From: Gemmatimonas sp.
GTDB lineage: Bacteria > Gemmatimonadota > Gemmatimonadetes > Gemmatimonadales > Gemmatimonadaceae
Length of the DNA stretch: 64,000 bases
Reading direction: 5' to 3'
Assembly (NCBI GenBank): GCA_046590495.1
Contig: JBKJTE010000029.1
Span: 329 to 64,328 of the forward strand
Positions 362 through 34,720 of this stretch are shown here, one piece after another. Below the pieces are notes generated by a model. It had not been told where the DNA came from, did not search any database, and saw only the letters and a list, made by a program, of their open reading frames with translations. Position 1 is the first letter of the stretch. Each line of letters opens with the position of its first letter. Position numbers and translations under genes: made by a program.

Positions 362-1801
362 TTAGCTGACCGGCTCTTCGTCTCGGTCGGTGCCTGGGGA
401 GACAAGACGGTGCCTTCGTAGCTTGACGTACAGGCTCTGTCGGCTGACGCCGAGGACTTCAGCGGCCGAGGTTCGGTTGTCGTTGGTGAGGTCGAGGGCC
501 GCTTCTATGAAGTGCCGTTCGACCAGGTCAACGGTGTCGCGCACCAGGTCGCGCAACGAGACTCGTCCTACCAGCGAGGTCAACTCTTCGACCGCTCTGG
601 TCAGATCGCGAGCGCCGGCCGGGGTACTGGCGAGGCGCCGCCCGATATCGCGCAGTGTGAAGCCGATGCACGGCTCTTCACCCTCCGGGACCCAGACCGC
701 CGAGACTTCCACTTCACTTTGACCGCCGTGGGCACCGCGAGCCGCCGTTCCGATCAGCCGAACGGCGCCGTTTTTCTTGAGCATGCTCAGGAAGACTGGA
801 AAATCGGCGCCGGGGCGACCGATCCAGTTGCCGAACGGCTGTCCACGGACCTGATCCTGACTGGCCAACTCCGTGATATCGAGGAACGCACGATTGGCCG
901 TCAGCACGACTCCATCGAGATCGGTCACAGCAAATCCGTCGGGCGACCGCTCGATCAGATCGAGGAGTCGCGCCGGCGATCCGGCTGTCGCCTCAGGAGA
1001 CGCCGCTTCAGTGGGCGAAAGGCGAACCAGAAGCAACGTCGCCGATTCCTGACGGAAACAGGACGCCGACGCATGGTAGGTGCGCTCGTTGCCGGTGATC
1101 GCGATCGTGATATCGCCAGCTCGGCCGGCGCTCCGGGCCGTCGACAATAGAGTCTCGATCGCGCGGGTGCTTCCGGCGGCGACACCAAACGGAAACGTCC
1201 GGCCGATCAGCCGATCTGGGGACTCGCCGAACATCGTCCCGGCAGCGCCGTTCGCGTCGAGCACTTTCAGTGTTGTCGCATCGACGACGAGGATGCCATC
1301 GCTCGCGAGCTGAAAGAGCAGGCGGTAGCGCGTTTCGACGTGACGGAGCCGCCAGTAGTCGCGTTCCATCGACTGCTGTGCTTCGACCAGTCGCTGTTGC
1401 AACGCGGAGACGTAACGCATGTCGCGCCCGACGGCGACGATTTCGCCGGCCTTGCCAAGGCGGAGCGTGGTGTATGAAAACGGGACCTCAACCCCATCGG
1501 TGACGGTGTGGTTGACCTGTCTCCGCTTGGACATGCCGCTGGTGGCCGCTTCCCGTAGCAGCGACTCGATCTTGAGCTTCGTGTCAGCGGTTACGGTGTC
1601 GACCCAAGGCTGGCCGACCCAAAGTTTCGTGTCGGCGAACTGCGCTTCGGCGCCGCTGACGGCTACGTCGCGAATGACTCCTGCGCTGTCCATGACCAGC
1701 GCGATGTCGCCCGCGACGGCGAGCAGCGCGGCCGCCGACCGTGCATCCAGATCACCGAAAACGGGGTCACTCGCGTCGAACGGCTTCACTGAGCTCGCCA
1801 T
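362..1801 (-). CDS. ppsR: PpsR/CrtJ transcriptional repressor of photosynthesis genes (PAS repeats plus C-terminal Fis-type HTH)
   Basis: ORF 362..1867. It has multiple PAS-like repeats and the C-terminal HTH NDNRTSAAEVLGVSRQSLYVKLRRHRL. Its position next to ppaA and bchF is typical. I prefer the ATG at 1801 (MASSVKPFDAS...), which overlaps the ppaA 3' end by 35 nt; the start is uncertain. Confidence 0.9.
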   Translation of the reverse strand: MASSVKPFDASDPVFGDLDARSAAALLAVAGDIALVMDSAGVIRDVAVSGAEAQFADTKLWVGQPWVDTVTADTKLKIESLLREAATSGMSKRRQVNHTVTDGVEVPFSYTTLRLGKAGEIVAVGRDMRYVSALQQRLVEAQQSMERDYWRLRHVETRYRLLFQLASDGILVVDATTLKVLDANGAAGTMFGESPDRLIGRTFPFGVAAGSTRAIETLLSTARSAGRAGDITIAITGNERTYHASASCFRQESATLLLVRLSPTEAASPEATAGSPARLLDLIERSPDGFAVTDLDGVVLTANRAFLDITELASQDQVRGQPFGNWIGRPGADFPVFLSMLKKNGAVRLIGTAARGAHGGQSEVEVSAVWVPEGEEPCIGFTLRDIGRRLASTPAGARDLTRAVEELTSLVGRVSLRDLVRDTVDLVERHFIEAALDLTNDNRTSAAEVLGVSRQSLYVKLRRHRLVSPGTDRDEEPVS

Positions 1802-2711
1802 GGCCACTGATTCCCTCCCGCATGTTGCCGAGAGGAGATGTGGAGGCGGTGGCAGCGAGCAATGCACGAGCGATCACTGGCGCTTCGCGGGCGTCGACTG
1901 CGTACGCGTCGGCGCCGACACGCGAGACCATGTCCCGATCGTCGACGAAGACTTTGCCGCCAACCATTACCCGCACGTTTGGGTTGCGCGATGACGACCG
2001 GAGACGACGAATCTCCCGTTTCAGCGTCGAGAGGCGGTTTTCGCAGCCGACAGAGAACCCGATGACGTCGAACCATTCGGAGGAAACCATAGCCAACAGG
2101 TCCGCTTCAGTCCATGGCGCACCGACCAGCACGCGCCATCCATCGCGGAGCATGAATTCAGCGACGATGATTGCGCCGAGGGTGTGCTGCTCGCCCGGGA
2201 CGCAGGTGAGCAGCACGTTGCCGACCGTTTCGAGGCGACCCGCGTCGGCGAGAAACACCTGCGACAGGTCGCGCAGAAGGCGCTGGATACGTCCCATCGC
2301 CACCGTCACTTCGACGAAATCGCATTCGTCGGAGTCCCAAAGGGTGCCCAGTCGTCGTGCGGTGGGCGCGAGCAAGTCGACGTAGATCGCGTCGATGGCT
2401 GTGCCATTCGCGACCAGATCCCGGACGTACTGAACAGCCAGACCGTCTTCCTGGCCGCGGACCGCGGCCACGAAAGCGGTGACGTCGGCATCGGAGAGAT
2501 GACGGGCCACGGCTGAGGTGGTCGAGGGAGGGACAGGTCCGGCCCGGTGGCTCAACATGAGCCGTGGCACAATCTCATTCTGGATCATGCGTTCGAGACG
2601 TTCGCGTTGGCGAGCGGCGGCAGACTGCGTAACGTCCACGGGTTCACTTCGACCGAGTGCGCTGATTTCTAGTGGTCTTTCCACGGCGGGGGTCTGGGAC
2701 GCGCCGAACAT
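1767..2711 (-). CDS. ppaA: PpaA/AerR cobalamin-binding antirepressor-type regulator
   Basis: B12-binding-domain signature ExHxxG in VPGEQHTLGAIIVAEFMLRDGWRVLVG. Position is immediately upstream of ppsR. The long ORF 1767..3125 was trimmed to the ATG at 2711 (MFGASQTPAV...) because its upstream part runs across the bchF promoter and start. Confidence 0.8.
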   Translation of the reverse strand: MFGASQTPAVERPLEISALGRSEPVDVTQSAAARQRERLERMIQNEIVPRLMLSHRAGPVPPSTTSAVARHLSDADVTAFVAAVRGQEDGLAVQYVRDLVANGTAIDAIYVDLLAPTARRLGTLWDSDECDFVEVTVAMGRIQRLLRDLSQVFLADAGRLETVGNVLLTCVPGEQHTLGAIIVAEFMLRDGWRVLVGAPWTEADLLAMVSSEWFDVIGFSVGCENRLSTLKREIRRLRSSSRNPNVRVMVGGKVFVDDRDMVSRVGADAYAVDAREAPVIARALLAATASTSPLGNMREGISGHGELSEAVRRE

Positions 2712-14922: not shown

Positions 14923-15123
14923 ATGAAGTACATCGATGGAGCACAGATCGCGCTCTACGCATTCTGGCTCTTCTTCGCAGGGCTGATCATCTACATCCGT
15001 CGCGAAGACAAGCGCGAGGGATATCCACTCGAGTCGCCGCAGGGACCGCGCGAAGGGTGGCCGAAGCCACCTGCCAAGAAGACCTACATTCATCGGCCGC
15101 AGGGCGGCGAAGGGACGCACTGA
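14923..15123 (+). CDS. puhA: Reaction-centre H subunit, N-terminal transmembrane fragment (66 aa)
   Basis: ATG at 14923: [41 protein letters not shown]... matches the PuhA TM helix plus the REGYPLE motif. It ends at TGA 15121-15123. Confidence 0.85.
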
Positions 15124-15665
15124 TGTCTGAACTCAAGGCGGTTCCGGTCGACAACTTCAACGGCTCTCCGCTCATTCCGACGGGCAATCCGATGCTCGAC
15201 GGAGTGGGACCTGCGTCGTGGGCGAATCGCTCCGACACACCAGACATCACGGTGCATGGTGCGCCGAAGATCGTCCCGATGCGTCTCGATCCGACGTTCT
15301 CCGTCGCGAAGGGAGATCCGGATCCGCGCGGCTTACCTGTGTACGCGGCCGACAAGGTCGTTGCCGGAACGGTGGTGGAGCTATGGGTCGATCGCGCTGA
15401 ACCACAGGTGCGCTACTACGAAGTGAAGCTCGCCAATGGCGAGCGGCACATTATGCTGCCCTCCGGATTTGTGCAGTGGCCCAACTTCGGACTCTGGGGA
15501 AACGATCGACTGCTGGTGAAGGCGATCACGTCCGCGCAGTTCGCCGATGTGCCGGCAATCAAGCGCGACGATTCCATCACGCTGCTCGAAGAAGACAAAG
15601 TGATGGCGTACTTCGCGGGCGGCCACCTGTACGCGACAGCAGCTCGGAGTGAGCCGATCATATGA
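15123..15665 (+). CDS. puhA: Reaction-centre H subunit, C-terminal cytoplasmic domain fragment (180 aa)
   Basis: The ATG at 15123 overlaps the preceding stop (TGATG). [53 protein letters not shown]...ITLLEEDKVMAYFAGGHLYA is the PuhA PRC-barrel/cytoplasmic domain. It is in a different frame from the N-terminal fragment. Confidence 0.88.
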   Translation: MSELKAVPVDNFNGSPLIPTGNPMLDGVGPASWANRSDTPDITVHGAPKIVPMRLDPTFSVAKGDPDPRGLPVYAADKVVAGTVVELWVDRAEPQVRYYEVKLANGERHIMLPSGFVQWPNFGLWGNDRLLVKAITSAQFADVPAIKRDDSITLLEEDKVMAYFAGGHLYATAARSEPII

Positions 15666-16345: not shown

Positions 16346-16409
16346 CACGACGAGATGCACGGCGGCTGCTGGTTGATGAGCATTTCTCTTTCTTCGTGAT
16401 CTACATCGG

Positions 16410-16922
16410 ATGAGCGGACCAATCCATTTCGAGCCCGAGCCGGGTGAACGTCCCGGTTCCGCGGCAACGATGAACGTACCGCGCCCTGCGCTGATCATGG
16501 CGGGGCTGCTCGTTCTCGTCGTGTTCGCGCTGGTGATTTCGGCGCGCGTGTTCGGCGTTGGCGCATCGCACGAGCCGACGGCCGCAGTACTCGCCGAACG
16601 ACAGTTGACGTTCACGGACGCGAAGGACGGCGGCATCATCGTGGAGGACGCAAAAACGCACACGGTTGCGGCGATGCTTCCACCCGCCACGAATGGATTC
16701 ATTCGTGGGGCGCTGCGGGCCTTGACCCGGGAACGCGCCCTCGCGGGTATCGGACGCGAACAGCCGTTCCGGCTTGTACGCTATGTAGACGGTCGGCTCG
16801 TGTTGCACGATCCCGCAACGACCCAGCACATCACGATCACGAGCTTTGGGCCGACCCAGATCGAATCGTTTGATCGACTGCTGGTGATCGGGCCGACACC
16901 GCAACAAGCACTTGCGCACTGA
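16410..16922 (+). CDS. puhC: Photosynthetic complex assembly protein PuhC
   Basis: 170-aa protein with a single N-terminal TM (PALIMAGLLVLVVFALVI), positioned after puhB. Confidence 0.8.
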   Translation: MSGPIHFEPEPGERPGSAATMNVPRPALIMAGLLVLVVFALVISARVFGVGASHEPTAAVLAERQLTFTDAKDGGIIVEDAKTHTVAAMLPPATNGFIRGALRALTRERALAGIGREQPFRLVRYVDGRLVLHDPATTQHITITSFGPTQIESFDRLLVIGPTPQQALAH

Positions 16923-16927
16923 GCCGG

Positions 16928-18667
16928 CTAACGCTTTTCCCGCTCGCCGGTCGCGTTGACATATACCGTGCAGGCGAGGTCAGGCCCCACGCGCGTCCGG
17001 CGAAAGAAGACGATACTCACTGTGAGTGAGAGTGATCCATTCGCCGAGAAGCGCCCGTTGAGACGAGTCACCAGCGCAGTGCTCGTTCGTGCCTGATCGG
17101 GCATAATCCGGGGCGTCGATGCGAAGTAGCCTTCGTGATCGATGTTGCTCGGGAAGTTGTCGCCCCCGTCAAATGCGATGTTGAGGGTGTCCGCGTTCGG
17201 GATGTGCATGACTGTTGCGTAGTCGACCGTTTGCGGCGTTCGTCTCCAGACCGACGTGCACTCCTTCGAACCATTCGCTTTGGCCGCGTCGTACCGAACG
17301 GCATAGCGACCGGCCACACCAGTTGCTCGAAGACTTGTGACGGCGGATCTGGGCGCGCTGCCTTTTCGTGAGGCGACCGCCGGTGTGGGTTCTGCCGTCC
17401 GGAACTTCACCGTGGTACCGAACTCCGTAGTGATCTGCTCGATGTCGTCCTTGCGAATTTCGTGTCGCAAGCCGCTGCGCATGTCGCGGAAGACCACGGT
17501 ACCTGCCCGGATAATGTCAACACGACCCACCATGCGCGTACCGTCGGTGAGCTGTACTTCGTCGTAGACGATTGGATCAGTGCGTGTGCTTGCGAGTCCG
17601 GTGGCAGCCTGCGGTCGTGAAGCACCACTCGCGCGACGCGCCGGTTCGACGATCAGCAGGCGCGCTGTATCGGCAGCGGTTCCCGGCAACGCATTAAGGG
17701 TGATTGCGGGGACGCCCGGCATTGCATCGCCCGCGCTAGCCCGTGGGGCCTCTTGAGCGCGTTCGGTCGCCACGGACGAAGCTGACGATTCGATTGCGGC
17801 GCCAACGGCTGCCGGCGACTGCGGCGGCGCGGTCGGCGGTGACTCGGCTACCCCGGCCTGGGACGGGGCCGACGATGACGCCGTCGTTTGCGCAGTCGCG
17901 CGTTCAGTCGCGCGGTCCTTACGAATTGAGACCACCATCTGTCCGATAAAAAACAGATACGCACTCGCCGCGCAGATCACGAGGTTTCGGACCAGCTTCG
18001 GATTCAGCGGCGGCACCGACGGTCGCGTTGACGCGATGCTTCGGATCGGCGGGCGCGCGTTGGACGGCTTTGTGTTCGCGCGCGCTGTACCCGTGCGACC
18101 GAGCGATGGCGTGCGCGGGTACGCGATACCAGTACCTGTCGCCGATACGGCAGCAGATGCCGCGGCCGGTGCCGACGCCGATGCATGCGTCTTGGTCGCA
18201 CCGAATGCGACTGTCTGCGTTGCGCGCGAAGGCGCTGCGCGCGAAGGCGCCGCGCCCTCGCCAGTTGTTGTGGTCTCGCTGGAGAATGGAGGCGCGATCC
18301 GCAGCCAATCGGCAGGGATTGCACCCAGCGCAAAGCCCCACGATTCCGCCGCCCACCGCGCCATCTCCGGCTGCACGAAACGCTCGGCCGACCATCGCAT
18401 CACGAAGGGCGATGTAAGCGCGTCCCAGCGCGCCGCGGGGATCGGCTCGGTTGGCAACGCATCAAGCCAGCCACGATGGATTGCTTCCAGCAGCAACTCT
18501 GCCAGCGGACGCGCATCACTCCCTGTTTCATCGAGTAGTCGATTGCGAAAGATTGCCAACGCCGCGGCGTCGCGCGCCGGCCGCTCCTGCTGCACGAGTT
18601 GACGCAGTGCGTTTCGCATACGAATGCGCGGATCAACAAACCTCGTCACGCAAACGCTCCCCGACAC
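16928..18667 (-). CDS. Uncharacterised single-pass membrane protein, paralogue 2 (N-terminal helical domain, Ala/Pro/Ser-rich linker, TM, extra beta-rich segment, C-terminal 2-Cys domain)
   Basis: It shares N-terminal (RNRLLDETGSDARPLAELLL...ARWAAESWGFAL) and C-terminal (GRYAVRY...ECTSV...LACTVYV) similarity with ORF 18693..20006. The TM is LVICAASAYLFFIGQMVVSI. The start is GTG 18667 or ATG 18619. Confidence 0.7.
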   Translation of the reverse strand: MSGSVCVTRFVDPRIRMRNALRQLVQQERPARDAAALAIFRNRLLDETGSDARPLAELLLEAIHRGWLDALPTEPIPAARWDALTSPFVMRWSAERFVQPEMARWAAESWGFALGAIPADWLRIAPPFSSETTTTGEGAAPSRAAPSRATQTVAFGATKTHASASAPAAASAAVSATGTGIAYPRTPSLGRTGTARANTKPSNARPPIRSIASTRPSVPPLNPKLVRNLVICAASAYLFFIGQMVVSIRKDRATERATAQTTASSSAPSQAGVAESPPTAPPQSPAAVGAAIESSASSVATERAQEAPRASAGDAMPGVPAITLNALPGTAADTARLLIVEPARRASGASRPQAATGLASTRTDPIVYDEVQLTDGTRMVGRVDIIRAGTVVFRDMRSGLRHEIRKDDIEQITTEFGTTVKFRTAEPTPAVASRKGSAPRSAVTSLRATGVAGRYAVRYDAAKANGSKECTSVWRRTPQTVDYATVMHIPNADTLNIAFDGGDNFPSNIDHEGYFASTPRIMPDQARTSTALVTRLNGRFSANGSLSLTVSIVFFRRTRVGPDLACTVYVNATGEREKR

Positions 18668-18692
18668 GGCGCGCGGTGCAGTACGTGCGCGT

Positions 18693-20006
18693 TCATTCCG
18701 GTATCCGCTCTGCGTCGAGCTGCGCGACCGTCGTGCACACCTGCGTGCGCCCCCAACGGAGAATCGCTTCGGTGTTGGTGCTCGTTTCCGCCGTGAATCC
18801 GCTGGACGTGAAACGACCGCGCATCCGGAAAGTCCACGTTACGCCGTCGGTCGTACCACGCTGTGGCCCGGCCTCAAAATATGCGTCGGCATCGAGGCGT
18901 CCGTTCACCGATCGCGACGCCAATGCAAAGAGGAAAGTCCCCGGTGCATGCGACACGACTTCAATCGTGCTCGGCGCGCGCGCGAGTGCATCGGCAACGG
19001 TGACGCAACTCGGACTGCCGGTCACCGACACCGAACGCTGCGTGACACGATAGCGTCCGCCCAAGCCGCGCGAGATCAGCTGCGCGCCATCGGACGGGGT
19101 CGGTGGGAGTGCAACTGAATGTGACGCCGACACACCACCAACGACGACACTGCGAACACCAGCCGCACTCTCGGCGGGCGGGAGAGCCCGCATCGCTCCA
19201 AGAGCGGCGATGCGAACGGAGTCTGCCGAGGAGCCTGGTTCGACGACGGGCAGCACCGACGCCGCCAGAATGTTCTCGACACGTCGCCCACGCAGCGCCA
19301 CGAAAGCGGCGATGAACATGACGACGGCAGCGATCCCCATCGTGGCCAATGCGGTCCGCTCAATCCGCTGCATCTGTGCGAGGCTTTTTGCGGTCATTGC
19401 GGGTGACAACGCACGCCGCCTCGCTATGACTGCCCGGGCGGTCGCCGGATGCACTTTCGCTTTTGCCGCATTGCCGGCCAATGCCACGGTTGCACCGGTT
19501 CGACCTGCGCTCTGACCACTCGCCGCCGACGGCGGGCGCAGTGGCGTGGGGGCACCGATCTGCGTCGGCGCAGGCCTCGCGACCGCCAACGGCACCATGC
19601 CAACGGCGCGGACAAACCCCGCGCTCGTAACCAAAGGGCTCGTTTCGGCATGCACAATCGACGGCCGTGTGACCTGTTGCGGCGCGACCTCCAGCACGGC
19701 GCCCCACGTGTCGACCAGCCATCGCGCGACGTCGGTTTGCAAGTAGCGCGTCGCGACGAGTTGATGCACAAGCGGCGCGCGACGCGCGTCCCACGGTACG
19801 TGCGCATTGTGCGCAATCAGTTGCGGTCGCAGCTGCGTCCCCGTAGCCAACAACAAATCGACCAGTGGACGATGATCGCTGCCGCAGGCGTCGAGCAACA
19901 AGTTGCAGAACTGTGCGGGTGCGCTGTCGAGCAGATCGGCGTGCGCCCGAAATGTCGCCGAAAGTGCCCCAGCAGTGCGCGCGAATGCGTCCTGTTCCAT
20001 CGACAT
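18693..20006 (-). CDS. Uncharacterised single-pass membrane protein, paralogue 1
   Basis: ATG at 20006, 9 nt after the kinase stop. N-terminal domain: CNLLLDACGSDHRPLVDLLL...ARWLVDTWGAVL. TM: ALATMGIAAVVMFIAAFVAL. C-terminal domain: GRYRVTQ...SCVTV...QVCTTVA. Confidence 0.7.
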   Translation of the reverse strand: MSMEQDAFARTAGALSATFRAHADLLDSAPAQFCNLLLDACGSDHRPLVDLLLATGTQLRPQLIAHNAHVPWDARRAPLVHQLVATRYLQTDVARWLVDTWGAVLEVAPQQVTRPSIVHAETSPLVTSAGFVRAVGMVPLAVARPAPTQIGAPTPLRPPSAASGQSAGRTGATVALAGNAAKAKVHPATARAVIARRRALSPAMTAKSLAQMQRIERTALATMGIAAVVMFIAAFVALRGRRVENILAASVLPVVEPGSSADSVRIAALGAMRALPPAESAAGVRSVVVGGVSASHSVALPPTPSDGAQLISRGLGGRYRVTQRSVSVTGSPSCVTVADALARAPSTIEVVSHAPGTFLFALASRSVNGRLDADAYFEAGPQRGTTDGVTWTFRMRGRFTSSGFTAETSTNTEAILRWGRTQVCTTVAQLDAERIPE

Positions 20007-20014
20007 GTTGTCGC

Positions 20015-21439
20015 TCAGTGCAACACGTCAAAGCGGAGCACACGTGTCGGCACTTCGCTGCCGATGCGCACCGCCAATCCCGGTACGCACTCGAGCGACG
20101 CATTGCGCCCGATGTCCGGTCCGTCGATCACGTGCCAAGTGGTGTCGCTGGTGTTCACGAGCCACCACTTGCCGCCATGTTGCGCGACATAGCCACGTGC
20201 ATCGCGCACCGCCCGTTCGTTGGGCAATACGCCGACGCGCAGGTGCCAGTCGTGGAGCGCGAGGTGATGCCACAGCACGAGCACGTCGCCTTCATCGACG
20301 ATCCCAGCGCCGGTGTCGCGAAGGTTGCGCGCCACAATTACCGGTGCCGCTACGCGTTCTTCGCCACGCATCGATGTCATCGGCAGCCCGGGACCGAGCA
20401 GTGTCCAGTGTCCTGAAGGCATAGGATAGAGGAGCTGCATCGTCCGATACAACGCCAGCTCCCACTCGGCGGCATCGGCCCGTCGCGCAGGACTGTGCAG
20501 CCCATCGACAAACGTCTGCGTGAAACAACGTGCGAGGTATGGACCTAGTCGCGCAAAAGGAATCTGGATAGAGTCGGTCGGCGGGTTGCGTCGATCGGTG
20601 GGATGCTCGACAAAGAGCGCGCGCGCTCCCATCGACAACTGTTCGTCCTCCTCCGCTGAGCGCGTGCTGTTCACACGCTTCCCTTGCAACGGATGACGCT
20701 GCAGCAGCAACTCGTACAGCAGGACCGCGAGTGCATGCTTGTCCGTCTCAATCGACGGCTGCGCTTTGTTCGACAATACCTCCGGCGCGATATATCCGGG
20801 CGTGCCCAGCACCGATGGCGGTGCAACGCCCGGCACCACAAGCGAGTCGATGTCGATGATGCATGCTTCGCCGCCTTTGGGATCGACGAGTACATTCTTG
20901 TTCGAGAGGTCCGCGTGTGCGAGCCCCGCCATGTGCAATCGTCGCACTGCTCGTGCAAGGCGCACGCCGATCTGCAGTCGTGTGAGCAGGTTGCCTGCTT
21001 CGGCCGCAGGCACAAAACGCGAGGCCTTGCCGCCCGAGAACCAACGGACCTCCTTCTCCTGTCGCGTGCCGAAACGATCAGTGAAGTAGAACGTCGGCTT
21101 ATACGTCGGCGTTACAACGGCGAGCGGTGGCCACACCAGCTGTTGCCTGCGCGCGAACTCGAGCGGGATCGCGTTCGCGCCATCCACCATTCCGACCGGC
21201 CAACAGAAGTACGGCGTCCAGTACGCGCCGTTTGTGGCAAGCGTCGGATTATAGTTGGTGAGAATGCGGGTCAGCCGGTCGACACGCTCGCGCCGGTCGG
21301 AAAGATGTCCATAGAAAAAACCGACCGCATGCTGGCGATCGCGCGTGAGAAATACGCGCTTCTCGGCGCCTGTCCCGACCGGCTCGTCCTCGATCTGCAG
21401 GACGCGCCCGTCCGTCAAACGGACGGCGACGAGACCCAT
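20015..21439 (-). CDS. Atypical eukaryotic-like Ser/Thr protein kinase with an extra C-terminal beta-rich (FHA-like?) domain
   Basis: Catalytic-loop-like HADLSNKNVLV, a DFG-equivalent IIDIDS, and an activation segment GTPGYIAPEVL. The C-terminal ~130 aa (GYVAQHGGKWWLVNTSDTTWHV...GLAVRIGSEVPTRVLRF) resembles FHA topology, which is inference. Confidence 0.75.
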   Translation of the reverse strand: MGLVAVRLTDGRVLQIEDEPVGTGAEKRVFLTRDRQHAVGFFYGHLSDRRERVDRLTRILTNYNPTLATNGAYWTPYFCWPVGMVDGANAIPLEFARRQQLVWPPLAVVTPTYKPTFYFTDRFGTRQEKEVRWFSGGKASRFVPAAEAGNLLTRLQIGVRLARAVRRLHMAGLAHADLSNKNVLVDPKGGEACIIDIDSLVVPGVAPPSVLGTPGYIAPEVLSNKAQPSIETDKHALAVLLYELLLQRHPLQGKRVNSTRSAEEDEQLSMGARALFVEHPTDRRNPPTDSIQIPFARLGPYLARCFTQTFVDGLHSPARRADAAEWELALYRTMQLLYPMPSGHWTLLGPGLPMTSMRGEERVAAPVIVARNLRDTGAGIVDEGDVLVLWHHLALHDWHLRVGVLPNERAVRDARGYVAQHGGKWWLVNTSDTTWHVIDGPDIGRNASLECVPGLAVRIGSEVPTRVLRFDVLH

Positions 21440-22434
21440 GCGACGAACAGTGTGCGGTCATCGTTTTCGCCACGCTTTTCAAACGCAAGCCACTCCATCA
21501 ACGCATGTACAGGGTCCGCGGCATGCAGCACTGCACCCCGCATCGCCTGAGTCATGCCTGCGGCCCCGGCATTGGTGTCATTCACGCCACTTTCCATCTG
21601 CGAGAAGAGTGCGGGCGCGTGGCGGCTGAACGGGTACCATGGGTCTTCGACGCCGTCCGTCGCCAGCAACAAGGCGTGAATTGCCGATGCGTCGTGCACG
21701 GCGAGCGATGCACCCAGCCGCTCCACGGCGCCGTCGTCAGGGAGAAAGTGCGTGACTTCACCGGAGAAGTCGCCCGCGTCGCCGCTGTGCGGTAAGTGCA
21801 CCGTGTGGTCGGCGCCGAGCAACGTGACCACACCATCGCCCACCTGAACGGTTGCGATGCGCGATGCATGTTCTGCCGCCACCAGCAGCGTCGTCCGGAG
21901 GTCACGCAGGGAGAGGTCCGCCAGTTCGGCGAATCGTCGCATGGCGCGATTGGCTGATTCGCCGGCGTGTGAGATCGCGGCGGGCAACGCATCGGCGGGC
22001 GCTCGGCCGTGTGCCAGCGCGTCGCGCAGCGCATGCGAGGCAACGTGCGTGGCGATCGCCGAACCGAGGCGACTCCATCGCGCGGAGCCCGCGCCGTCGG
22101 CCACCGCGGCACACCAACCCCCGGCAAAGGTGAGCACCACGCCAGCGTCTTCACGATGCTCGCCGCGATGAGCGTGCAGCCGTCCGCGACGCGACCCGAT
22201 CAGCAACGACCGGTGCGCTGACATCGCCCGGGTCCCTGTCGCTTCTACGGGGGCGTGCTGCCCGTCGGGAGCCTGCAATCCCGGGGCGACGATGTCGAGG
22301 TGCGCGAGCCACTCGTGCGGGCACCACGGGCCTTCTGGAAACTTGACACTCCACGTCGCGTGCGGCGGTGCGGACGCGCTCGACGCGCTCGACACAGCGC
22401 TCGCGGCATCGTTCGACGAAGTTGGTAATGTCAC
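21415..22434 (-). CDS. PP2C-family Ser/Thr phosphatase
   Basis: PP2C-like metal-binding motifs AVADGAGSARWS and LLATDGVEDPW. GTG start 3 nt after the vWA stop. It overlaps the kinase start by 25 nt. Confidence 0.75.
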   Translation of the reverse strand: MTLPTSSNDAASAVSSASSASAPPHATWSVKFPEGPWCPHEWLAHLDIVAPGLQAPDGQHAPVEATGTRAMSAHRSLLIGSRRGRLHAHRGEHREDAGVVLTFAGGWCAAVADGAGSARWSRLGSAIATHVASHALRDALAHGRAPADALPAAISHAGESANRAMRRFAELADLSLRDLRTTLLVAAEHASRIATVQVGDGVVTLLGADHTVHLPHSGDAGDFSGEVTHFLPDDGAVERLGASLAVHDASAIHALLLATDGVEDPWYPFSRHAPALFSQMESGVNDTNAGAAGMTQAMRGAVLHAADPVHALMEWLAFEKRGENDDRTLFVAWVSSPSV

Positions 22435-22437
22435 GCG

Positions 22438-23079
22438 TCAGGGAACGATCGTGATGCCAGGAGGCGGAGGGGGCAGGGTGATACCGACTCCATCGCCAAG
22501 CGCGCCAACTTTTGAACTCGTCTGCTTCACCGACGCCGAAACGAAGCGGAAAAACGCCTTGAATGCATCGGGCGACATGTCCTGCATCTGGATCACGCTT
22601 TCGGTGACTTGCTTGAGCACCTGTGTGTCCGCCTGATCGCCGCAGGCCACTGCGATGATGTTGGCGGGGCGACGCTCACGCAGCTGCTGCGCGTACATCG
22701 GCCATTCGGTGTCGGTCGGCGCGCCGTCCGAAAGGATGAAGACGAGGGGACGCCAATCGCCCTTCACTTCTGCGCTGGTGCGCACGAGTTCGCGATCAAA
22801 CACATCGAGCAACAGTCTGAGTCCGTCACCGAAGTGCGTGTTGCCGCTGGCGGTGAGCTCTGGAGGATTGAATGCGGCGACTTCGGTCAGCGGTACGACT
22901 TGCTGCGCGCTGTTGGAGAAGGTGAGCACGGACAGGTACGCGCTCTCGATGGCCTGTGGATCACCAAGCAGATCGCGATGCAACTGTCGAATTCCCGACT
23001 TCACAGACTCGATGGGGGTGCCCTGCATCGAGCCGGAAACGTCGGCAAGGATGTAGACCGGCAGGCGGCGAAGAGACAC
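22438..23079 (-). CDS. TerY-like von Willebrand factor A (vWA) domain protein
   Basis: MIDAS motif in RRLPVYILADVSGSMQGTPI, plus TFSNSAQ and LVFILSDGAPTD. 213 aa, GTG start. Confidence 0.85.
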   Translation of the reverse strand: MSLRRLPVYILADVSGSMQGTPIESVKSGIRQLHRDLLGDPQAIESAYLSVLTFSNSAQQVVPLTEVAAFNPPELTASGNTHFGDGLRLLLDVFDRELVRTSAEVKGDWRPLVFILSDGAPTDTEWPMYAQQLRERRPANIIAVACGDQADTQVLKQVTESVIQMQDMSPDAFKAFFRFVSASVKQTSSKVGALGDGVGITLPPPPPGITIVP

Positions 23080-23159
23080 GGGAGCTCTGGTCGAAAGAGG
23101 TGAATGTGGGTGCTTGAGATGCTACGCGCCGGCGCCTCTGACAGATCCCGCAACGCAAG

Positions 23160-23187
23160 ACCCCGTGACGCCGAAGCGCCACGGGGT
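23160..23187 (-). terminator. GC-rich stem-loop downstream of pufC (possible leaky terminator or mRNA 3' stabiliser)
   Basis: ACCCCGTGACGC-CGAA-GCGCCACGGGGT forms about 11 bp with one mismatch. There is no clear U-tract, so the function is uncertain. Confidence 0.3.
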
Positions 23188-23243
23188 GTGCCGCGCGGTA
23201 GGCCAGCGGCCCGGTGCGCAGCAGGTGCGGTCGATCGACGGCT

Positions 23244-24371
23244 CTAGCGTGTGCCTCCGGCAGGTGCAGTCTGCACCCCACCAGATGCAGGAGAAAGCGG
23301 TCCCTTCGCGGACTTCTTTACAGCGGCAGGCATCGCGGCAGACGAATCCAGCTTCGCCATCGCAGTATCCGTCGGTGAGGTACCAACGCCCTTGAACGGC
23401 ACGCCGTTCCAGTCGGGTCGCCCCCACAACGCGGGATAGTATTTCACCATCTGTGCACCATACAGCGGCTTGTAGTTTCCGTTGTGACAGGTCACACACT
23501 GCGCCTTCGGAGCATCGCCCAGATTGCCGAGTCGTACCGCAGGGTAGACCGGCTGCAGCGGGGAGAGATAGCTCGTGTTCAGATCGCGCAGCATGAGAAT
23601 GCCGTGATACGCTGTCACTCGTGTCGGTGGGGCCTGCGTCCAACTCGCGAACTGCCGTGAGTTGTGGCAGTAGGTGCAGTTCACGCCGAGCGACTTGGCC
23701 TGACTGATCATCAGCGCGTACGTCCACTCCGTTTGCTTGACCGAGCTCCGATTGCCCGTGCGCGACGGCGCCACTTGCTGGGACACGACACGCGCGCCGT
23801 CGCGATCGAGATAGTGTCGCAGGTAGTCCGTCTGCTTGGTGTAGAACCAGAGGCCATTCGGCAGGGGCTTGCCCATGTGACACGTGTAGCACGTAACGCC
23901 GGTATTCTTGACGTGCTGCGGATACTGACCATTGATGTGTCGCGTCATCTGGAGCATGCGACGCGCAACGAGCTTGGTGTAGATCGGCTTGCCGTTGGGC
24001 AGCGTGTCGTCGGCAAGGTTTGCGACGTTGTGGCAGTACGCGCAGTTACCCGTACCCGCCACCCATGTGCTCATGGCAGTCATCGTCCGCAGGAACTCCG
24101 TCGGACTGACGTCGTTCAACACCTGCACGTTGCGCCACGGAAGCGGACCCGGAGGAGATTCACCCGCGGGCGGCAACGGATCAGGAATCTTGACCTGCGC
24201 AAACTTCGATTTCACGTCGCCGCGCGTGTAGTTCTGTTCCATCGCGACACCGCGATAGCCGACCTGCACGGAATCGGTGCGACGGTCTTCCATGCACGCC
24301 CCGAGCAGCAGGAGCAGCGCGGGGGTTGCCGCGATCGCCGTCACCCGGGCCCGTTGAAGTAACGACTTCAT
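23244..24371 (-). CDS. pufC: Reaction-centre tetrahaem cytochrome c subunit (lipoprotein-type N-terminus)
   Basis: Four CxxCH motifs (CAYCH, CYTCH, CTYCH, CVTCH). Lipobox LLLLGAC. ATGA overlap with the pufM stop. Confidence 0.95.
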
Positions 24372-25516
24372 GGAGTCCTCCGTGCGCCTGCGGAATCAGT
24401 TTTGGCAGGTACACCAGGTGTGGCAGCCGTGGAGTCGGCAGGCTTTTTGGTGGAGTCGGCGGGAACGGTCATCACGGTGCTGTCGAGCATCATCGGAGCG
24501 ACCGGCGCGTTGTACACAGGGAACGTGTCCGGTGTCGTGCCCTGATAACGCCCGCGTAACAACTGTTGCTGCTCGGGCGTCAACGTGTTCTGCGCCGGAT
24601 ACGTGGAAACCAATCCGTGCTTCACGCCCCAGAGATACCAGTTGTCGACGACCGTGCCGGTGAGCAGAATGCCTATGCCACCAGTAAACGTCGTCAGTAC
24701 GGCAAACCACCACGCCCAGCGATGAATCGACTCCATCGTCGCGTTGAATCCCATCGTCCAGCGCCAGAAGAGCATTGAACGCTCGGCTGCGGTACCACGA
24801 TCGGTGATCTGTTCGATTTCACGCTCACCGCCCAGCCGGGCGACCGCGAGAATCGTGGCCGCATGCATGGCGAACAACACGGCGCTGCCATAGAGAAACG
24901 CGATGGAAAGCGCGTGGAACGGGTTGTAGTAGAGATTCCCGTAGCGGATCGAGAACGCCGCCGTCCAGTCCAGGTGCGGGAAGATTCCGAAGGGCACCAT
25001 TTCGCTCCAGCTGCCGACGAACAGTGGCTGGAAGAAGAACGCCAGATACAGGAAAATCGCCGACGCAAACGCCCAAGGCAGATGGGTGCCCATGTTCAGC
25101 GCGCGTGCGCGACGATACACACGCACCCACCAGAGCAGGATGCTGAGAGTGAGACAGAAACCCGCCATCAGATACCACCCACCCTGTGCGAGTGGTGGGA
25201 TGTGCAATCCGTACTGTGGTGGTGGCGGTTCGAGCGCGAGCCACGGGAGCTGTCGGATGAACTCGACCGGATTCCAGCCGACCGACGCCCACATGTTCAG
25301 GCCGATGATTTCAAATGCGGCGAGTCCGAAGAGCAGCGAGAGGACGCCCGCGGTGCCGAGGTAAATCGGACCGAACTGCGCGTCACCGAACTTGCCGGCG
25401 AGCGAGGAGAAGAAGCCGTTCCCGACCCGACCACCGGGCGAACCGGGAATCGGCAGACCGGGTTCAGGTACGGTCCGGACCTGGACGCGAGTAAAGAGGT
25501 TCTGGTATTCAAGCAT
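24368..25516 (-). CDS. pufM: Reaction-centre M subunit with a C-terminal extension of about 80 aa
   Basis: [15 protein letters not shown]... and [15 protein letters not shown] are canonical PufM. ATG at 25516; the track ORF start at 25570 is discarded. A tail follows: [10 protein letters not shown]...[31 protein letters not shown]. Confidence 0.93.
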
Positions 25517-25530
25517 GTCAGTACCTGTCC

Positions 25531-26355
25531 TCAGCGCCAGATCGGGAGATTGAGCCACCAGCCCCACCACTCAGGCCAGCCCTTGGTCCAAAACGGGCCG
25601 GAGATCACGATGCAGATCGCACTCCAGATGCTGGCACTCACTGCGAGGAAGAGGCCGAGCCGATGGATGCCGATCGCGCCGATCGAGTAGCCGAGCAAGT
25701 CGCGGAAGAAAACGTTTTCAGTTTCACTCGTACCGACCGGCGTGCCCTTCTTCGGATTCGTCACCGACAGGATCAACGATCCGTGCATCGCGAGCGCGAG
25801 GCAGTTGGTGAAGAAGAAGGTGACGGCGATCATGTGCGCCGGATTGTAGTGAAAGTGGAGATACTGGTATCCCACGTTCGACACCCAATCGAGGTGCGAG
25901 AAAATTCCGTATGGAAAGCCGTGTCCCCATGCGCCCATGAGCAACGGGCGAATGACCACGAGGGTGAGGTAAGCGAACACGGCGGCGCCGTACGCCCACG
26001 GAATGTGCATCCCCATGCCGAGCTTGCGACTGATTTCGGCCTGCCGTAACGCCCAGCTGCCGAATGCACCGCAGGCACAGATGGTGATGATTTGCCACAA
26101 ACCTCCTTCACGCAGCGGCGCGAACCCGAGGCCGTACTTCAGGTCGGGCGGTGCAATGGAGATCTGCCAAAGGTTCCACGTCGGACCCATCGCTGCTCCC
26201 CACACGCAGAGCAGCGTACCGAGTAGAACAAAAAAGATTGCTGAGACACCAAAAAAGCCCACGTAGAACGGACCGAACCAGAAATCGAAAAGATCTCCGC
26301 CAATCAGTGTTCCACCGCGGACCCGATACTTTTTTTCAAAACTGAGCATCGCCAT
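25531..26355 (-). CDS. pufL: Reaction-centre L subunit
   Basis: [36 protein letters not shown]... is a canonical PufL N-terminus. ATG at 26355 was verified. Confidence 0.95.
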
Positions 26356-26400
26356 GGGCGATTTCTCCAAGCTGCAGACGATGGCGGAGGCTGGCGTCGG

Positions 26401-26442
26401 CCGGGGATGGCATCGCACCGACACGTGCGATCACCATCCCGG
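26401..26442 (-). promoter_or_regulatory. Intercistronic GC-rich stem-loop between pufA and pufL
   Basis: In CCGGGGATGGCATCGCACCGACACGTGCGATCACCATCCCGG an inner 7-bp stem (ATCGCAC/GTGCGAT) stacks on an outer ~9-bp stem with a small bulge. Its position is analogous to the Rhodobacter pufA-pufL mRNA stability hairpin. Confidence 0.5.
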
Positions 26443-26460
26443 CGGCGACGCGCGACGTTG

Positions 26461-26676
26461 TTACCGGCCGGGCGGGAGCGGCGACATCTCTGCCGCTGTT
26501 GCCGGAGCCGATGCCCCGACGGGCGCCTGCGCGGCAGACAGCGTGCCGTTCTCGATCCACGAGTAACGCTGTGAGCTGAGCAGGATAAAGTGAATGACGA
26601 ACGCGAGCAGACCGAGGAAGCCACCCATGGCGACCATGATGCGACGCGGGTCAAACATCAACCATATGCGATGCAT
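26461..26676 (-). CDS. pufA: Light-harvesting alpha polypeptide (71 aa, canonical LH1-alpha-like with a C-terminal extension)
   Basis: MHRIWLMFDPRRIMVAMGGFLGLLAFVIHFILLSSQRYSWIENG... has the conserved BChl-ligating His in the VIHFILLS context. SD AAGGGAG lies upstream. Confidence 0.92.
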   Translation of the reverse strand: MHRIWLMFDPRRIMVAMGGFLGLLAFVIHFILLSSQRYSWIENGTLSAAQAPVGASAPATAAEMSPLPPGR

Positions 26677-26688
26677 GTAGAGTCTCCC

Positions 26689-26853
26689 TTAACGGGTGGC
26701 GGCTGGCGGCGACGCGTACTTCGCGATCGTGCTTGCCGGGTAGTTCACCACGCGAAACGCGAAGAGGTGAATCACCAGGACGGTTCCAGCGATGAACGAG
26801 CCTGTGACGGACATTACGATCTTGGGATCGAGTCCGATCCAGATACGGTGCAT
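26689..26853 (-). CDS. pufA: Second, divergent light-harvesting alpha-type polypeptide (54 aa; not in ORF track)
   Basis: Manual translation: MHRIWIGLDPKIVMSVTGSFIAGTVLVIHLFAFRVVNYPASTIAKYASPPAATR*. It shares the MHRIW..DP..VM N-terminus and TM His with the downstream pufA. SD TAAGGAG lies 6 nt upstream of the ATG. Confidence 0.8.
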   Translation of the reverse strand: MHRIWIGLDPKIVMSVTGSFIAGTVLVIHLFAFRVVNYPASTIAKYASPPAATR

Positions 26854-26898
26854 GGAGCGCTCCTTAGTGCGCGAGAGTTAAGCGGCGATGTGCAGGAC

Positions 26899-27036
26899 TC
26901 AGAACCAGGGACGCCAGCTCCACGCGAGCAAATGCGCACCCACTGCGGTCAACACGAACGCCGCCGTGCCCGCGATGAAGTACCCATGAAATCGACGGGC
27001 CTCTTCGTCAGTCATGCCGCCATTTCCTTCAGCCAT
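26899..27036 (-). CDS. pufB: Light-harvesting beta polypeptide (45 aa; not in ORF track)
   Basis: Manual translation: MAEGNGGMTDEEARRFHGYFIAGTAAFVLTAVGAHLLAWSWRPWF*. This is the classic beta-chain His and WRPWF C-terminus. SD GGGAGG lies upstream. Confidence 0.9.
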   Translation of the reverse strand: MAEGNGGMTDEEARRFHGYFIAGTAAFVLTAVGAHLLAWSWRPWF

Positions 27037-27133
27037 ACTTCCTCCCGAAAAAAAGCGATGCTACCGCGCTCATCCCGCGCGGCGGGGATGCCGAGTCCAT
27101 GCTGGGCTCGGCGAATTCCGTACTTTCTTCGGC

Positions 27134-27177
27134 TGTAAACTTCACCTTACACTCCATTGCGTCAAGAATTATTTACA
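27134..27177. promoter_or_regulatory. Pair of PpsR-type sites in the divergent pufB/bchO promoter region
   Basis: TGTAAACTTCACCTTACA (27134-27151) is an exact TGT-N12-ACA. CGTCAAGAATTATTTACA (27160-27177) has one mismatch. The sites are spaced 8 nt apart. Confidence 0.55.
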
Positions 27178-27209
27178 CCTTTGCCCAACATTCCTTCGAC
27201 TTCCCCGAC

Positions 27210-28118
27210 ATGACAGTCGATTCAGCGCGCGAACCGAGCAAAACCGACCGGAAATTCGACGACGCGCCCCCGCCAGACTGGCCATTCCGGGGCGCCTCGA
27301 GACTCCGGGACGTCGACGGCATCCGATGGCACTACCAACAGCTCGGTGAAGGACAGGACTTGCTCCTCGTCCACGGAACGGGCGGCTCGGTGCACTCCTG
27401 GGAGCGGTGCCTTGAACCGCTCGCCTCGGCCTTTCGCGTAACTGCCATCGACCTGCCGGGACACGGCTTCACTCTCGTGCCCCCCGAGGTCGACGCCCGC
27501 GCGGACAGCTACTCCCTGGACGGGATGTCCCGCGCGGTTGCGTCGCTGCTGAAAACGATTGGTGTTGCACCGACCCTGGTCGCGGGACATTCGGCCGGCG
27601 TGTCCGTGTTGCTGCGCATGGTGCTGGATGGACACATCGCACCCGCACGGATCGTCGGCTTCAATCCGGCACTGGTCGCACCGCCCGATTTCTACGTCGC
27701 GCTCATTGCACCGGTACTCGGCGCGCTCTTCGAATCGCGCGCGATCGCCGGCAGCGGTGCATGGCTCGCACGAAGCACGCGCATCATTCAGACGATGCTC
27801 GCCAGCACGGGAACGCAGCTCAACCCCGACGCACTCGCGCGATACGAATTTCTGTGCGCGCGCCCCGAACATGTCCACGCTGCACTGGCGATGATGTCCC
27901 GGTGGGATCTGCCACGCGTTGTGCGGGACACGGTCGCGCTCAGCACCCCGCTCGATCTCATCGCGGGCGCAGACGACCGCTGGGTGCCGTATGCCGCGTT
28001 GCAAAAAAGCGTCGCCCGCATTCCGCGAGCGACGCTCCGAGCAATCAATGGTGCCGGACATCTGCTGCCTGAAGAGCGCCCTGACGACGTCGTGCGCGCA
28101 CTGTTGTATCCGACTTAG
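27210..28118 (+). CDS. bchO: BchO-like alpha/beta hydrolase (Mg-chelatase accessory protein)
   Basis: Alpha/beta-hydrolase fold with [10 protein letters not shown] and the nucleophile elbow GHSAG, in PGC context. ATG at 27210 ([10 protein letters not shown]...); the track start at 27099 lies in the promoter region. Confidence 0.7.
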
Positions 28119-29569
28119 GCCGTCGCACCCTGCAACCCGCGTCGCGACGCGAGCACATGGTCGCGCGTGACTATGGTATCGCCCAGGTCACGCGCATCTT
28201 TTTCAGCGAGATCGCGCAAACGCTTGGCGGCAGAAATACGAATGAGGACCGGATATTGATCGACAGTTTCGTCGAGCGCCGTCTTTGCTTCGTCGTCCCA
28301 CGGCAGCTCCTTATGCAGGCGTGAAGGCGTCGCATCGATCTTGTCCATGTCCGTGCCGAGGGGCAGGATGTGGAAGAGCATATCGAAGAGCGCGTTGCAC
28401 ACTTCCTGCACGAGATACGTCGCGCCACTGTAGCCCATGAACGGCGTACCCGTGTGACGACGAATGATCGCGCCCGGAAAACTCGCCGGGATGTACATCG
28501 ACCGCGCGCCCATTTCCGCGAGATACATCCGCTCGTTGTAGCTGCCGAACATGATGAGCGGCGGCGTTGCCTTGATCGCCGCACGAACGGCTGCGTTATC
28601 TGGCTTCACACCAGGCCGACGCGAGAAGGCGAAGGAGCACGGGAGCCCCATCTCCGTCTCGAGAAAATTGCGGACACCGCGCGCGTACGTTTCGTTGGCG
28701 ACGATCGCAAAGTTCGCCGTGCCAAAGAAATCCTGCGTGACGCTGCGCCACAGATCCCACAACGGCTTGATCGTGGTGTGCTTCTCCTTCTCGATGAACG
28801 GCTCCGGATCGAGGCCCAGCATCTCACCAAGCGTGCGCAAAAACTTGGTCGTGCTATGCAGGCCAATCGGCGCCTGCAGATACGGACGATCGAGTGCTTC
28901 GCACAGCATGCGGCCGAATTCGCGATACATGCAGACGTTCACATCGGCATCAACCAGTCGCGGCACATTCTCGAGATGACTGCCGAGCGGGAAGACCATG
29001 TTCACCTCGGCACCAATCCCTTCAACCAGGCGCCGGATCTCCGCGAGATCACTCGGCGAATTGAAGTAACCGTAGATCGTGCCAACGATGTTCACGCGCG
29101 GCTTGTCGCCTTCTTTTTTTTCGCGACGCTTCGGTGCGATGCCTTTCTTGAGGCCGTACTCCGTCCACAACCAGTAGAGCGCGCGTTCGGCCGCTTGCCA
29201 CTGATCTTCGTCGATCGTGCGCGGAAGGAAACGCTGAATGTTCGTGCCTTCGGGCGTGACACCACCGCCGATCATCTCGGCGATCGAACCGGTGACGACG
29301 ACAGCCGGCAGTTCGGGGTCGAGTGTGCGGTGCGCGCGTCGCATGGCGCCTTCGGTGCCGTTACGACCCAGCTCTTCTTCACCGAGACCCGTGACAACAA
29401 TCGGGAGCTCGTGCGGTGGCAGTGCATCGGTGTAATGCAGCACCGACGTCACCGGCAAGTTTTCGCAGCCGACCGGTCCGTCGATAACTACCTGCAATCC
29501 CTTGATCGCGGTGAACACATACACAGCGCCCCAGTAGCCACCCGCGCGATCATGATCGAGCACGAGCAT
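28115..29569 (-). CDS. bchZ: Chlorophyllide a reductase subunit Z
   Basis: [48 protein letters not shown] is a BchZ N-terminus. The ATG at 29569 overlaps the bchY stop (TGATG). Confidence 0.93.
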
Positions 29570-33242: not shown

Positions 33243-33286
33243 TGTAAGGTTATGTTGACACCACCGACTGTCAAGAATCCCGAACG
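33243..33286. promoter_or_regulatory. PpsR-type sites upstream of bchC
   Basis: TGTAAGGTTATGTTGACA (33243-33260) is an exact TGT-N12-ACA. TGTCAAGAATCCCGAACG (33269-33286) has one mismatch. They lie in the 145-nt gap between the crtF stop and the bchC start. Confidence 0.55.
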
Positions 33287-34605: not shown

Positions 34606-34623
34606 TGTCAAGAAATGTGTACA
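34606..34623. promoter_or_regulatory. PpsR-type palindrome in the divergent crtF/bchI promoter
   Basis: TGTCAAGAAATGTGTACA is an exact TGT-N12-ACA. It lies 30 nt upstream of the proposed crtF start and ~100 nt upstream of the bchI ATG. Confidence 0.55.
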
Positions 34624-34720
34624 CCTTTGAGTGTCCGCTCTTGCTCACACCGGAGCGGACTCCTAACGTGCCCTCGGCCGCGGGTCGCTGCTCCGCGCCG
34701 ATCAACCCAAGTGGACTTGC

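Follow-up and report, generated by a model that had tools for sequence, protein, structure and literature searches.

The puf operon examined here lies on the minus strand of a 64,000-nt stretch of Gemmatimonas sp. DNA (assembly GCA_046590495.1, contig JBKJTE010000029.1; hereafter the window) and reads pufB-pufA2-pufA1-pufLMC, with three small antenna genes preceding those of the reaction centre. By homology, pufB (27036..26899, 45 aa, with the C-terminal end AHLLAWSWRPWF) encodes the beta polypeptide common to the LH1 and LHh rings of a double-ring photosystem, pufA2 (26853..26689, 54 aa) the LHh-alpha of its outer ring and pufA1 (26676..26461, 71 aa) the LH1-alpha of its inner ring, the last having His29 and a C-terminal tail that is long and rich in Ala and Pro. 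They are followed by pufL (25531..26355; reaction-centre L subunit, NCBIfam TIGR01157, 1.5e-126), pufM (24368..about 25516; TIGR01115, 6.9e-154) and pufC (23244..24371; NF040706 PufC, 8.4e-101), all on the minus strand, with spacers of 45 nt between pufB and pufA2, 12 nt between pufA2 and pufA1 and 105 nt between pufA1 and pufL. The pufL start is the ATG at 26355 and not the GTG at 26424 given in the list of open reading frames (ORFs), which sits in the loop of a hairpin in the pufA1-pufL spacer. An earlier note, made from the letters alone, had proposed one beta and two tandem alphas before pufL, and its ORFs, coordinates and translations for all three were exact; it called the 71-aa protein the canonical pufA, which is apt, this being PufA1. 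The separate Shine-Dalgarno sequences that it claimed were also located: GGGAGG (27046-27041) for pufB with the ATG 4 nt further on, AAGGAG (26865-26860) for pufA2 with the ATG 6 nt further on, and GGGAG (26688-26684) for pufA1, which overlaps the pufA2 TAA and has the ATG 7 nt further on. Both alphas begin with MHRIW and keep the bacteriochlorophyll (BChl)-ligating His29, with 37% identity over residues 1-38 and no relationship beyond residue 38, in line with the proposed divergence after the His. Because the default ORF cut-off is 60 aa, the 45- and 54-aa genes pufB and pufA2 are absent from the ORF track.

Each peptide was compared with all PDB chain sequences by phmmer, and all three matched chains of the published Gemmatimonas phototrophica complex (7O0U), a comparison that the earlier note had called for. 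PufA2 aligned without gaps over residues 1-54 to 7O0U_AA, named ‘LHh-alpha’ (E 6e-19, 61% identity), and matched 9H19_AA, the outer-ring alpha of G. groenlandica (E 1.5e-12, 48% identity). Its matches to purple-bacterial LH1 alphas were at chance level (E 0.03-1), and LH2 chains were not among its PDB matches listed; the best PDB matches of the alphas to LH2 chains were weak (E at least 0.13). PufA1 matched over its full length both 9H19_Aa (E 8.9e-40, ~92% identity) and 7O0U_aa (E 1.7e-37, ~85%), while PufB matched 9H19_Ba (E 9.5e-18) and 7O0U_BA (E 1e-17), with ~68% identity to G. phototrophica PufB. The family search suggested for both alphas gave a divided result, in that the Pfam LHC profile (PF00556, gathering threshold 23 bits) recognised PufA1 (49.3 bits), and also PufB (41.7 bits), but left PufA2 at 14.4 bits (E 0.047), below the threshold. 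Judged from the PDB match and from the 37% of residues 1-38 that it shares with PufA1, PufA2 is nevertheless a clear homologue and the profile too narrow, and the fold of PufA2 can be taken as fixed by the 61%-identical solved structure. Among database homologues of PufA2, 16 of 17 had neither a Pfam hit nor a name, and such homologues are nearly all unnamed because they score under the Pfam LHC threshold. The annotation gap is systematic, and metagenome surveys therefore undercount the antenna genes of the phylum.

A scan with a degenerate pattern, taking one genome per species, gave 42 related loci. The order pufB-pufA2-pufA1-pufL was found in all 42, and all but one contig were labelled Gemmatimonadota. 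PufA2 is 52-59 aa long across these loci, except for one 70-aa copy, and its His29 is invariant (19/19 aligned sequences, 46/46 copies). The ratio of nonsynonymous to synonymous substitution rates (dN/dS) for pufA2 was 0.07-0.11 against the six closest loci (L001-L006), less than or equal to that of pufB and pufA1, and the three antenna genes together ranged over 0.02-0.24 against close relatives. With PDB E-values of 6e-19, 9e-40 and 1e-17 and dN/dS in this range, the antenna genes are, as judged by homology and selection, not chance ORFs. The earlier note had conceded that its case would fall if the 54-aa ORF lacked homologues and was not translated; homologues of PufA2 were found among the PDB LHh-alpha chains and in all 42 related loci. 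Assembled metatranscriptome contigs from close relatives span both gene junctions, that between pufB and pufA2 in X19 (record 16), X24 (record 5) and X29 (record 15), and that between pufA2 and pufA1 in X25 (record 9) and in X29 (record 14, which is 97% identical to the window). Relatives thus transcribe the three antenna genes together; neither transcript ends nor relative abundance could be read from these contigs.

A 182-aa plus-strand ORF (26590..27138) that runs antisense to the three antenna genes was set aside as almost certainly spurious, the purifying selection being that of the minus-strand frames. An ORF track with the 60-aa cut-off would display this antisense ORF instead of the real antenna genes. 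A GC3-based gene map failed to tell real genes and antisense ORFs apart and was dropped. The single contig labelled otherwise (L033, CALQGY020000004.1), titled as a ‘Candidatus Kuenenia stuttgartiensis’ metagenome-assembled genome (MAG), carries a typical Gemmatimonadota operon with a PufA1 92% identical to that of the window and is probably mis-binned.

The reaction-centre H subunit provides a second link to the characterised Gemmatimonas complexes. On the plus strand of the window, puhA is split into puhA1 (RC-Ht, 14923..15123), a 66-aa transmembrane fragment that matches positions 5-66 of Pfam PRCH (PF03967, E 1.2e-20), and puhA2 (RC-Hc, 15123..15665), a 180-aa cytoplasmic fragment that matches 7O0U_H2 ‘RC-Hc’ (E 3.9e-97) and 9H22_K (2.1e-98) as well as Pfam PRCH positions 82-133 and a PRC barrel. 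The puhA1 stop codon and the puhA2 ATG have 1 nt in common. These sizes match the 204 bp of puhA1 and 546 bp of puhA2 in G. phototrophica (PMC8849296), and the split puhA is, as far as gene structure tells, a lineage hallmark shared with the two characterised Gemmatimonas species.

In G. phototrophica, the single pufB supplies the beta polypeptide of both rings, pufA1 the alpha of the inner 16-mer and pufA2 that of the outer 24-mer (Qian et al. 2022, PMC8849296), and the same gene roles were confirmed in a second species, G. groenlandica, by Gardiner et al. 2025, who also proposed that pufA2 arose by duplication of pufA1 (PMC12817894). The three genes of the window are real and, by their homologues, are the one beta and two alphas of this published Gemmatimonadota double-ring photosystem. 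That pufB-pufA2-pufA1 encodes the antenna of such a reaction-centre double-ring complex (RC-dLH) is in our estimate the best full explanation, with a probability of about 0.88. The PDB chain matches, the published gene roles (PMC8849296) and the split puhA all bear out the LH1 plus LHh double ring proposed in the earlier note. As a one-beta, two-alpha system it is a rediscovery of what was published in 2022 and 2025, and new only as a further member. In this organism, PufB would pair with PufA1 in the inner LH1 ring, which surrounds the reaction centre and has 16 alpha/beta pairs in the solved homologues, and with PufA2 in the outer LHh ring, which has 24 in those homologues, each pair holding two BChls through alpha-His29 and beta-His35, and light energy would pass from the outer ring to the inner ring and on to the reaction centre; assembly of the rings is expected by homology.

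A close counterpart is the G. phototrophica RC-dLH (PDB 7O0U-7O0X; PMC8849296), with which the window shares the common PufB, the inner PufA1, the outer PufA2 of 54 aa, the downstream pufLMC, the split puhA and residues Arg3, Ser15 and His29 of PufA2. The two differ in sequence (PufA2 61%, PufB ~68% and PufA1 ~85% identical) and in origin, G. phototrophica being a lake organism and that of the window an uncultured one from soil. The G. groenlandica complex (PDB 9H19/9H22; PMC12817894) has the same double-ring gene set and a PufA1 ~92% identical, but its PufA2 is only 48% identical and has Trp31 where the window has Phe31. The Halorhodospira halophila LH1-LH2 co-complex likewise has two concentric antenna rings, but these are built from separate LH1 and LH2 gene pairs that are not homologous to PufA2 (PMC11802735).

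Several points weigh against the double-ring assignment. The organism is known from soil metagenomes only; PufA2 is 61% and 48% identical to the solved chains and three residues in contact with pigments or subunits differ, so that ring size and packing could differ. The metatranscriptome contigs come from relatives and not from this exact genome, and may hold DNA contamination. RC-S and RC-U, the extra linkers of G. phototrophica, found no match by PDB comparison among six unannotated ORFs near pufC and the puh genes (15662-22434 and 22438-23079), one compared singly and five concatenated.

If PufA1 and PufA2 were instead mixed in one heterogeneous LH1 ring, the operon would resemble those of purple sulfur bacteria, in which LH1 also has more than one alpha gene for the core antenna (alpha1, alpha2 and alpha3 of PDB 7VRJ). 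Such multi-alpha single rings exist, the 7VRJ chains match both alphas weakly, and the solved double-ring structures include no PufA2 of the Phe31/Tyr38 type found in the window. In 7VRJ-type LH1, however, the isoforms are mixed in one ring with several betas, and the match to PufA2 has an E-value of at least 0.03, the chance level seen with purple-bacterial LH1 alphas in general (E 0.03-1). PufA2 is a gapless full-length homologue of chains that, in each of the two Gemmatimonas complexes solved, are confined to the outer ring (PMC8849296), and the split puhA and conserved gene order link the window to the same lineage, which leaves a single mixed ring quite improbable. A free LH2-like peripheral antenna of PufB and PufA2, not concentric with the core, would accord with the short C-terminus of PufA2, which resembles LH2 alphas, and with the lack of pucBA genes, in whose place PufA2 could serve. 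This lack, claimed in the earlier note, held up in a low-stringency tblastn of the three peptides, for these 64 kb only: the next best match had an E-value of at least 0.1, and no further antenna gene, whether a second beta or another LH-like ORF, was found in the window. The LH2 and LH3 of purple bacteria are free peripheral rings with pucBA operons and betas of their own, unlike the presumed outer ring of the window, for which the beta of the core would be reused and whose alpha gene lies inside the puf operon. The ring of PufB and PufA2 surrounds RC-LH1 in the two homologous structures, where LH1-beta and LHh-alpha helices are in close contact (PMC8849296), and nothing in the window points otherwise; a free ring is likewise improbable, if anything slightly more so than a mixed one. 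That the 54-aa ORF is a decaying pufA duplicate that has lost translation has a negligible chance of being true, since the low Pfam LHC score (14.4 against 23 bits) and the mostly unnamed database homologues that might suggest it are contradicted by conservation (intact in 42/42 genomes with His29 invariant), selection (dN/dS 0.07-0.11) and transcription in relatives, and further by its own AAGGAG ribosome-binding site and by a homologue seen as protein in two cryo-EM maps.

The double-ring gene set thereby assigned to the window belongs to an uncultured soil relative of Gemmatimonas, outside the species-representative genomes scanned, because two metagenome runs from soil contain the sequence almost in full (97% and 88% of the words sampled) and the closest species-representative genomes reach only 85% identity in PufA2 and 97-98% in PufL. 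The gene set extends to an uncultured soil lineage, and none of the 42 species-level genomes departs from its gene order.

Four Gemmatimonadaceae MAGs carry an enlarged operon, pufB-pufA2-pufB'-pufA2'-pufA1, with two betas and three alphas (L034:3110-4172, L037:5806-6941, L038:5806-6941 and L040:3868-4881). Their extra alphas are all of the Phe31/Tyr38 type, and the arrangement, which is not mentioned in PMC8849296 or PMC12817894, could mean that there is a third ring or that the outer ring is a mixed one.

Since the PufA2 alignment is gapless, residue numbers transfer directly from 7O0U. Among the retained residues, Arg3 is the contact to the carotenoid carboxyl and Ser15 is the sole hydrogen bond to B800 in G. 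phototrophica. At two further positions PufA2 of the window differs, with Phe31 for Trp31 and Tyr38 for Trp38, and in PufB, where His35 (equivalent to His34 of G. phototrophica) is the BChl ligand and Trp44 is equivalent to Trp43, Phe27 stands in place of Tyr26. All three replaced residues have roles in the solved complexes. In G. groenlandica, Trp31 donates a hydrogen bond to the C3 acetyl of the neighbouring BChl, placing LHh at ~860 nm, whereas in G. phototrophica Trp31 points away and the outer ring absorbs at 816 nm (PMC12817894). In the latter species, Trp38 makes an inter-subunit hydrogen bond to beta-Trp43, and beta-Tyr26 a hydrogen bond to the C13-3 ester of the alpha-BChl (PMC8849296). 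The window thus lacks Trp31, the LHh-alpha residue that tunes between 816 and 860 nm, a functional feature and not a requirement for membership of the double-ring family. Phe31 cannot donate the acetyl hydrogen bond, and a permanently blue outer-ring band would therefore be expected. The same logic of tuning by loss of an acetyl hydrogen bond distinguishes LH2 from LH3 (B800-850 and B800-820), where replacement of a hydrogen-bond-donating Tyr or Trp near the BChl acetyl by Phe or Leu causes a blue shift, as in LH3 of Rhodoblastus acidophilus and in the alpha-Tyr44/Tyr45 mutants of Rhodobacter sphaeroides. Because of the Phe31, Tyr38 and beta-Phe27 differences and this blue shift, the outer ring of the window is predicted to have a fixed blue band, near 816 nm or at shorter wavelengths and distinct from that of the inner ring at ~868 nm. 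If this is true, the near-infrared spectrum of Phe31 strains should contain two distinct bands, and the W31F substitution should split the single 860-nm band of G. groenlandica.

A census of residues 31 and 38 in 46 PufA2 copies, for which M[HY]R[IL]W[IVM]G[LT]D served as the pattern and whose counts are biased lower bounds since G. groenlandica-like N-termini are missed, gave Phe/Trp in 17, Phe/Tyr, as in the window, in 15, Trp/Trp in 13 and Phe/Phe in 1. Phe31 (33/46) thus outnumbers Trp31 (13/46), which makes the state seen in the two studied species the rarer one: the residue presented as the outer-ring colour switch is replaced by Phe in ~70% of the surveyed copies, including that of the window. 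The loci farthest from the window by PufL identity (78-89%) are all of the Phe31/Tyr38 type with beta-Phe, and the paralogue PufA1 also carries Tyr38. These distant loci and the PufA1 residue, taken without a rooted tree, suggest that the Phe31/Tyr38 form may be ancestral. Among the nearest relatives of the window (PufL 96-98% identical), all four residue-31/38 combinations are present, and two of these relatives have mosaic pufA2 genes, in which only a patch of ~45 nt changes its affinity to that of other lineages while the flanks stay at 0.8-1.0. In L008 (6001-6168), the patch has an identity of 0.58 to the window but of 0.89 to L017, a locus with Trp31 and Trp38 in which the C-terminal half of PufA2 is similar to that of G. 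phototrophica, and the flanks are window-like (0.8-0.9); in L012 (2338-2508), the patch is 0.51 identical to L002 and ~0.80 to L016 and L008. The patch encodes the BChl-facing residues ~29-44 and was observed in these relatives and not in the window. A tentative joint reading, which we consider possible though somewhat doubtful, is that Phe31/Tyr38 with beta-Phe27 represents an uncharacterised, probably ancestral LHh form and that the ~45-nt patch behaves as an exchangeable colour cassette. If so, the colour of the outer ring in Gemmatimonadota would be set mainly by allele replacement, and the rotamer switch of Trp31 reported in 2025 would hold as a special case for the minority that has this residue.

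Two candidate regulatory elements flank the antenna genes. The 105-nt pufA1-pufL spacer folds at -47.2 kcal/mol and contains an intercistronic minus-strand stem-loop (26390..26456, core 26440..26402) that is G+C-rich and has no U-tract after it. A comparable hairpin occurs in the pufA1-pufL spacer of 42/42 loci, including those with unrelated sequence, and compensatory changes were found in 12 of 19 pairs (RNAalifold, 26 sequences). Folding energy gives it no support, the 136-nt fold around the hairpin being unexceptional relative to shuffles (z = -1.3), and the support is covariation, not energy. In the puf mRNA of Rhodobacter capsulatus, a pufA-pufL hairpin protects the antenna segment against 3'-exonucleolytic decay, and the ratio of antenna to reaction-centre mRNA is raised as a result. 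The two hairpins are alike in being G+C-rich, in having no U-tract and in immediately following the last antenna gene, ahead of pufL, but they share no sequence similarity, and only position and covariation suggest the role in the window. By this analogy, 3'-to-5' decay of the mRNA would be halted at the hairpin, the pufB-A2-A1 segment would outlast pufLMC, and the protected antenna mRNA would help to supply ~40 beta, 24 alpha2 and 16 alpha1 polypeptides per reaction centre.

Upstream, the divergent pufB/bchO spacer holds a perfect TGT-N12-ACA palindrome, TGTAAGGTGAAGTTTACA (27134..27151), a putative PpsR/CrtJ-type operator ~100 nt upstream of the pufB ATG. Of 41 related loci, 29 have a site of the same form between -105 and -134. 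Across the window as a whole there is no enrichment of the motif (8 found, 9.7 expected), which counts against the assignment; the case for an operator is made by position and conservation in relatives, from which a PpsR role may be proposed. A promoter in this spacer with a PpsR-type operator would drive the three antenna genes together, and the hairpin and the PpsR-type site fit high antenna-to-reaction-centre expression. A promoter and terminator scan of 23000-28200 gave nothing above shuffle expectation and no sigma-70-like promoter upstream of pufB. Since bchO (27099..28118, plus strand) lies between bchZ and pufB on the strand opposite to puf, read-through from bchCXYZ into puf, as in the purple-bacterial ‘superoperon’, seems unlikely, and puf would need a promoter of its own.

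Further TGT-N12-ACA sites lie upstream of bchC (33243-33260) and just upstream of bchI (34606-34623 and 34632-34649), the latter within the 5' end of a crtF-like ORF as listed, and an imperfect second half-site is found at 27160-27177. The pufB 5' leader contains a minus-strand stem-loop (27064..27082, CCGCGC-GGGATGA-GCGCGG), whose stem is kept in relatives with altered sequence, such as GCCGCGA...TCGCGGC and GGCTGCA...TGTAGCC, as judged by eye and without statistics.

The operon is part of a photosynthesis gene cluster that includes ppsR (362..1867, minus strand), bchN, bchB, bchH, bchL, bchM, acsF, an LhaA-like ORF and puhB, and continues through a block of unknown genes, pufCMLA1A2B (minus strand), bchO (plus strand), bchZYXC, bchI, bchD and puhE. 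Between the puh genes and pufC, the block at 16928-23079 comprises five consecutive minus-strand ORFs of 579, 437, 474, 339 and 213 aa. Families could be assigned to none of these save for a weak protein-kinase-like match at 20015-21439. In the PDB, the 213-aa ORF (22438..23079) matched 8S05 only, an unrelated ‘conserved protein’.

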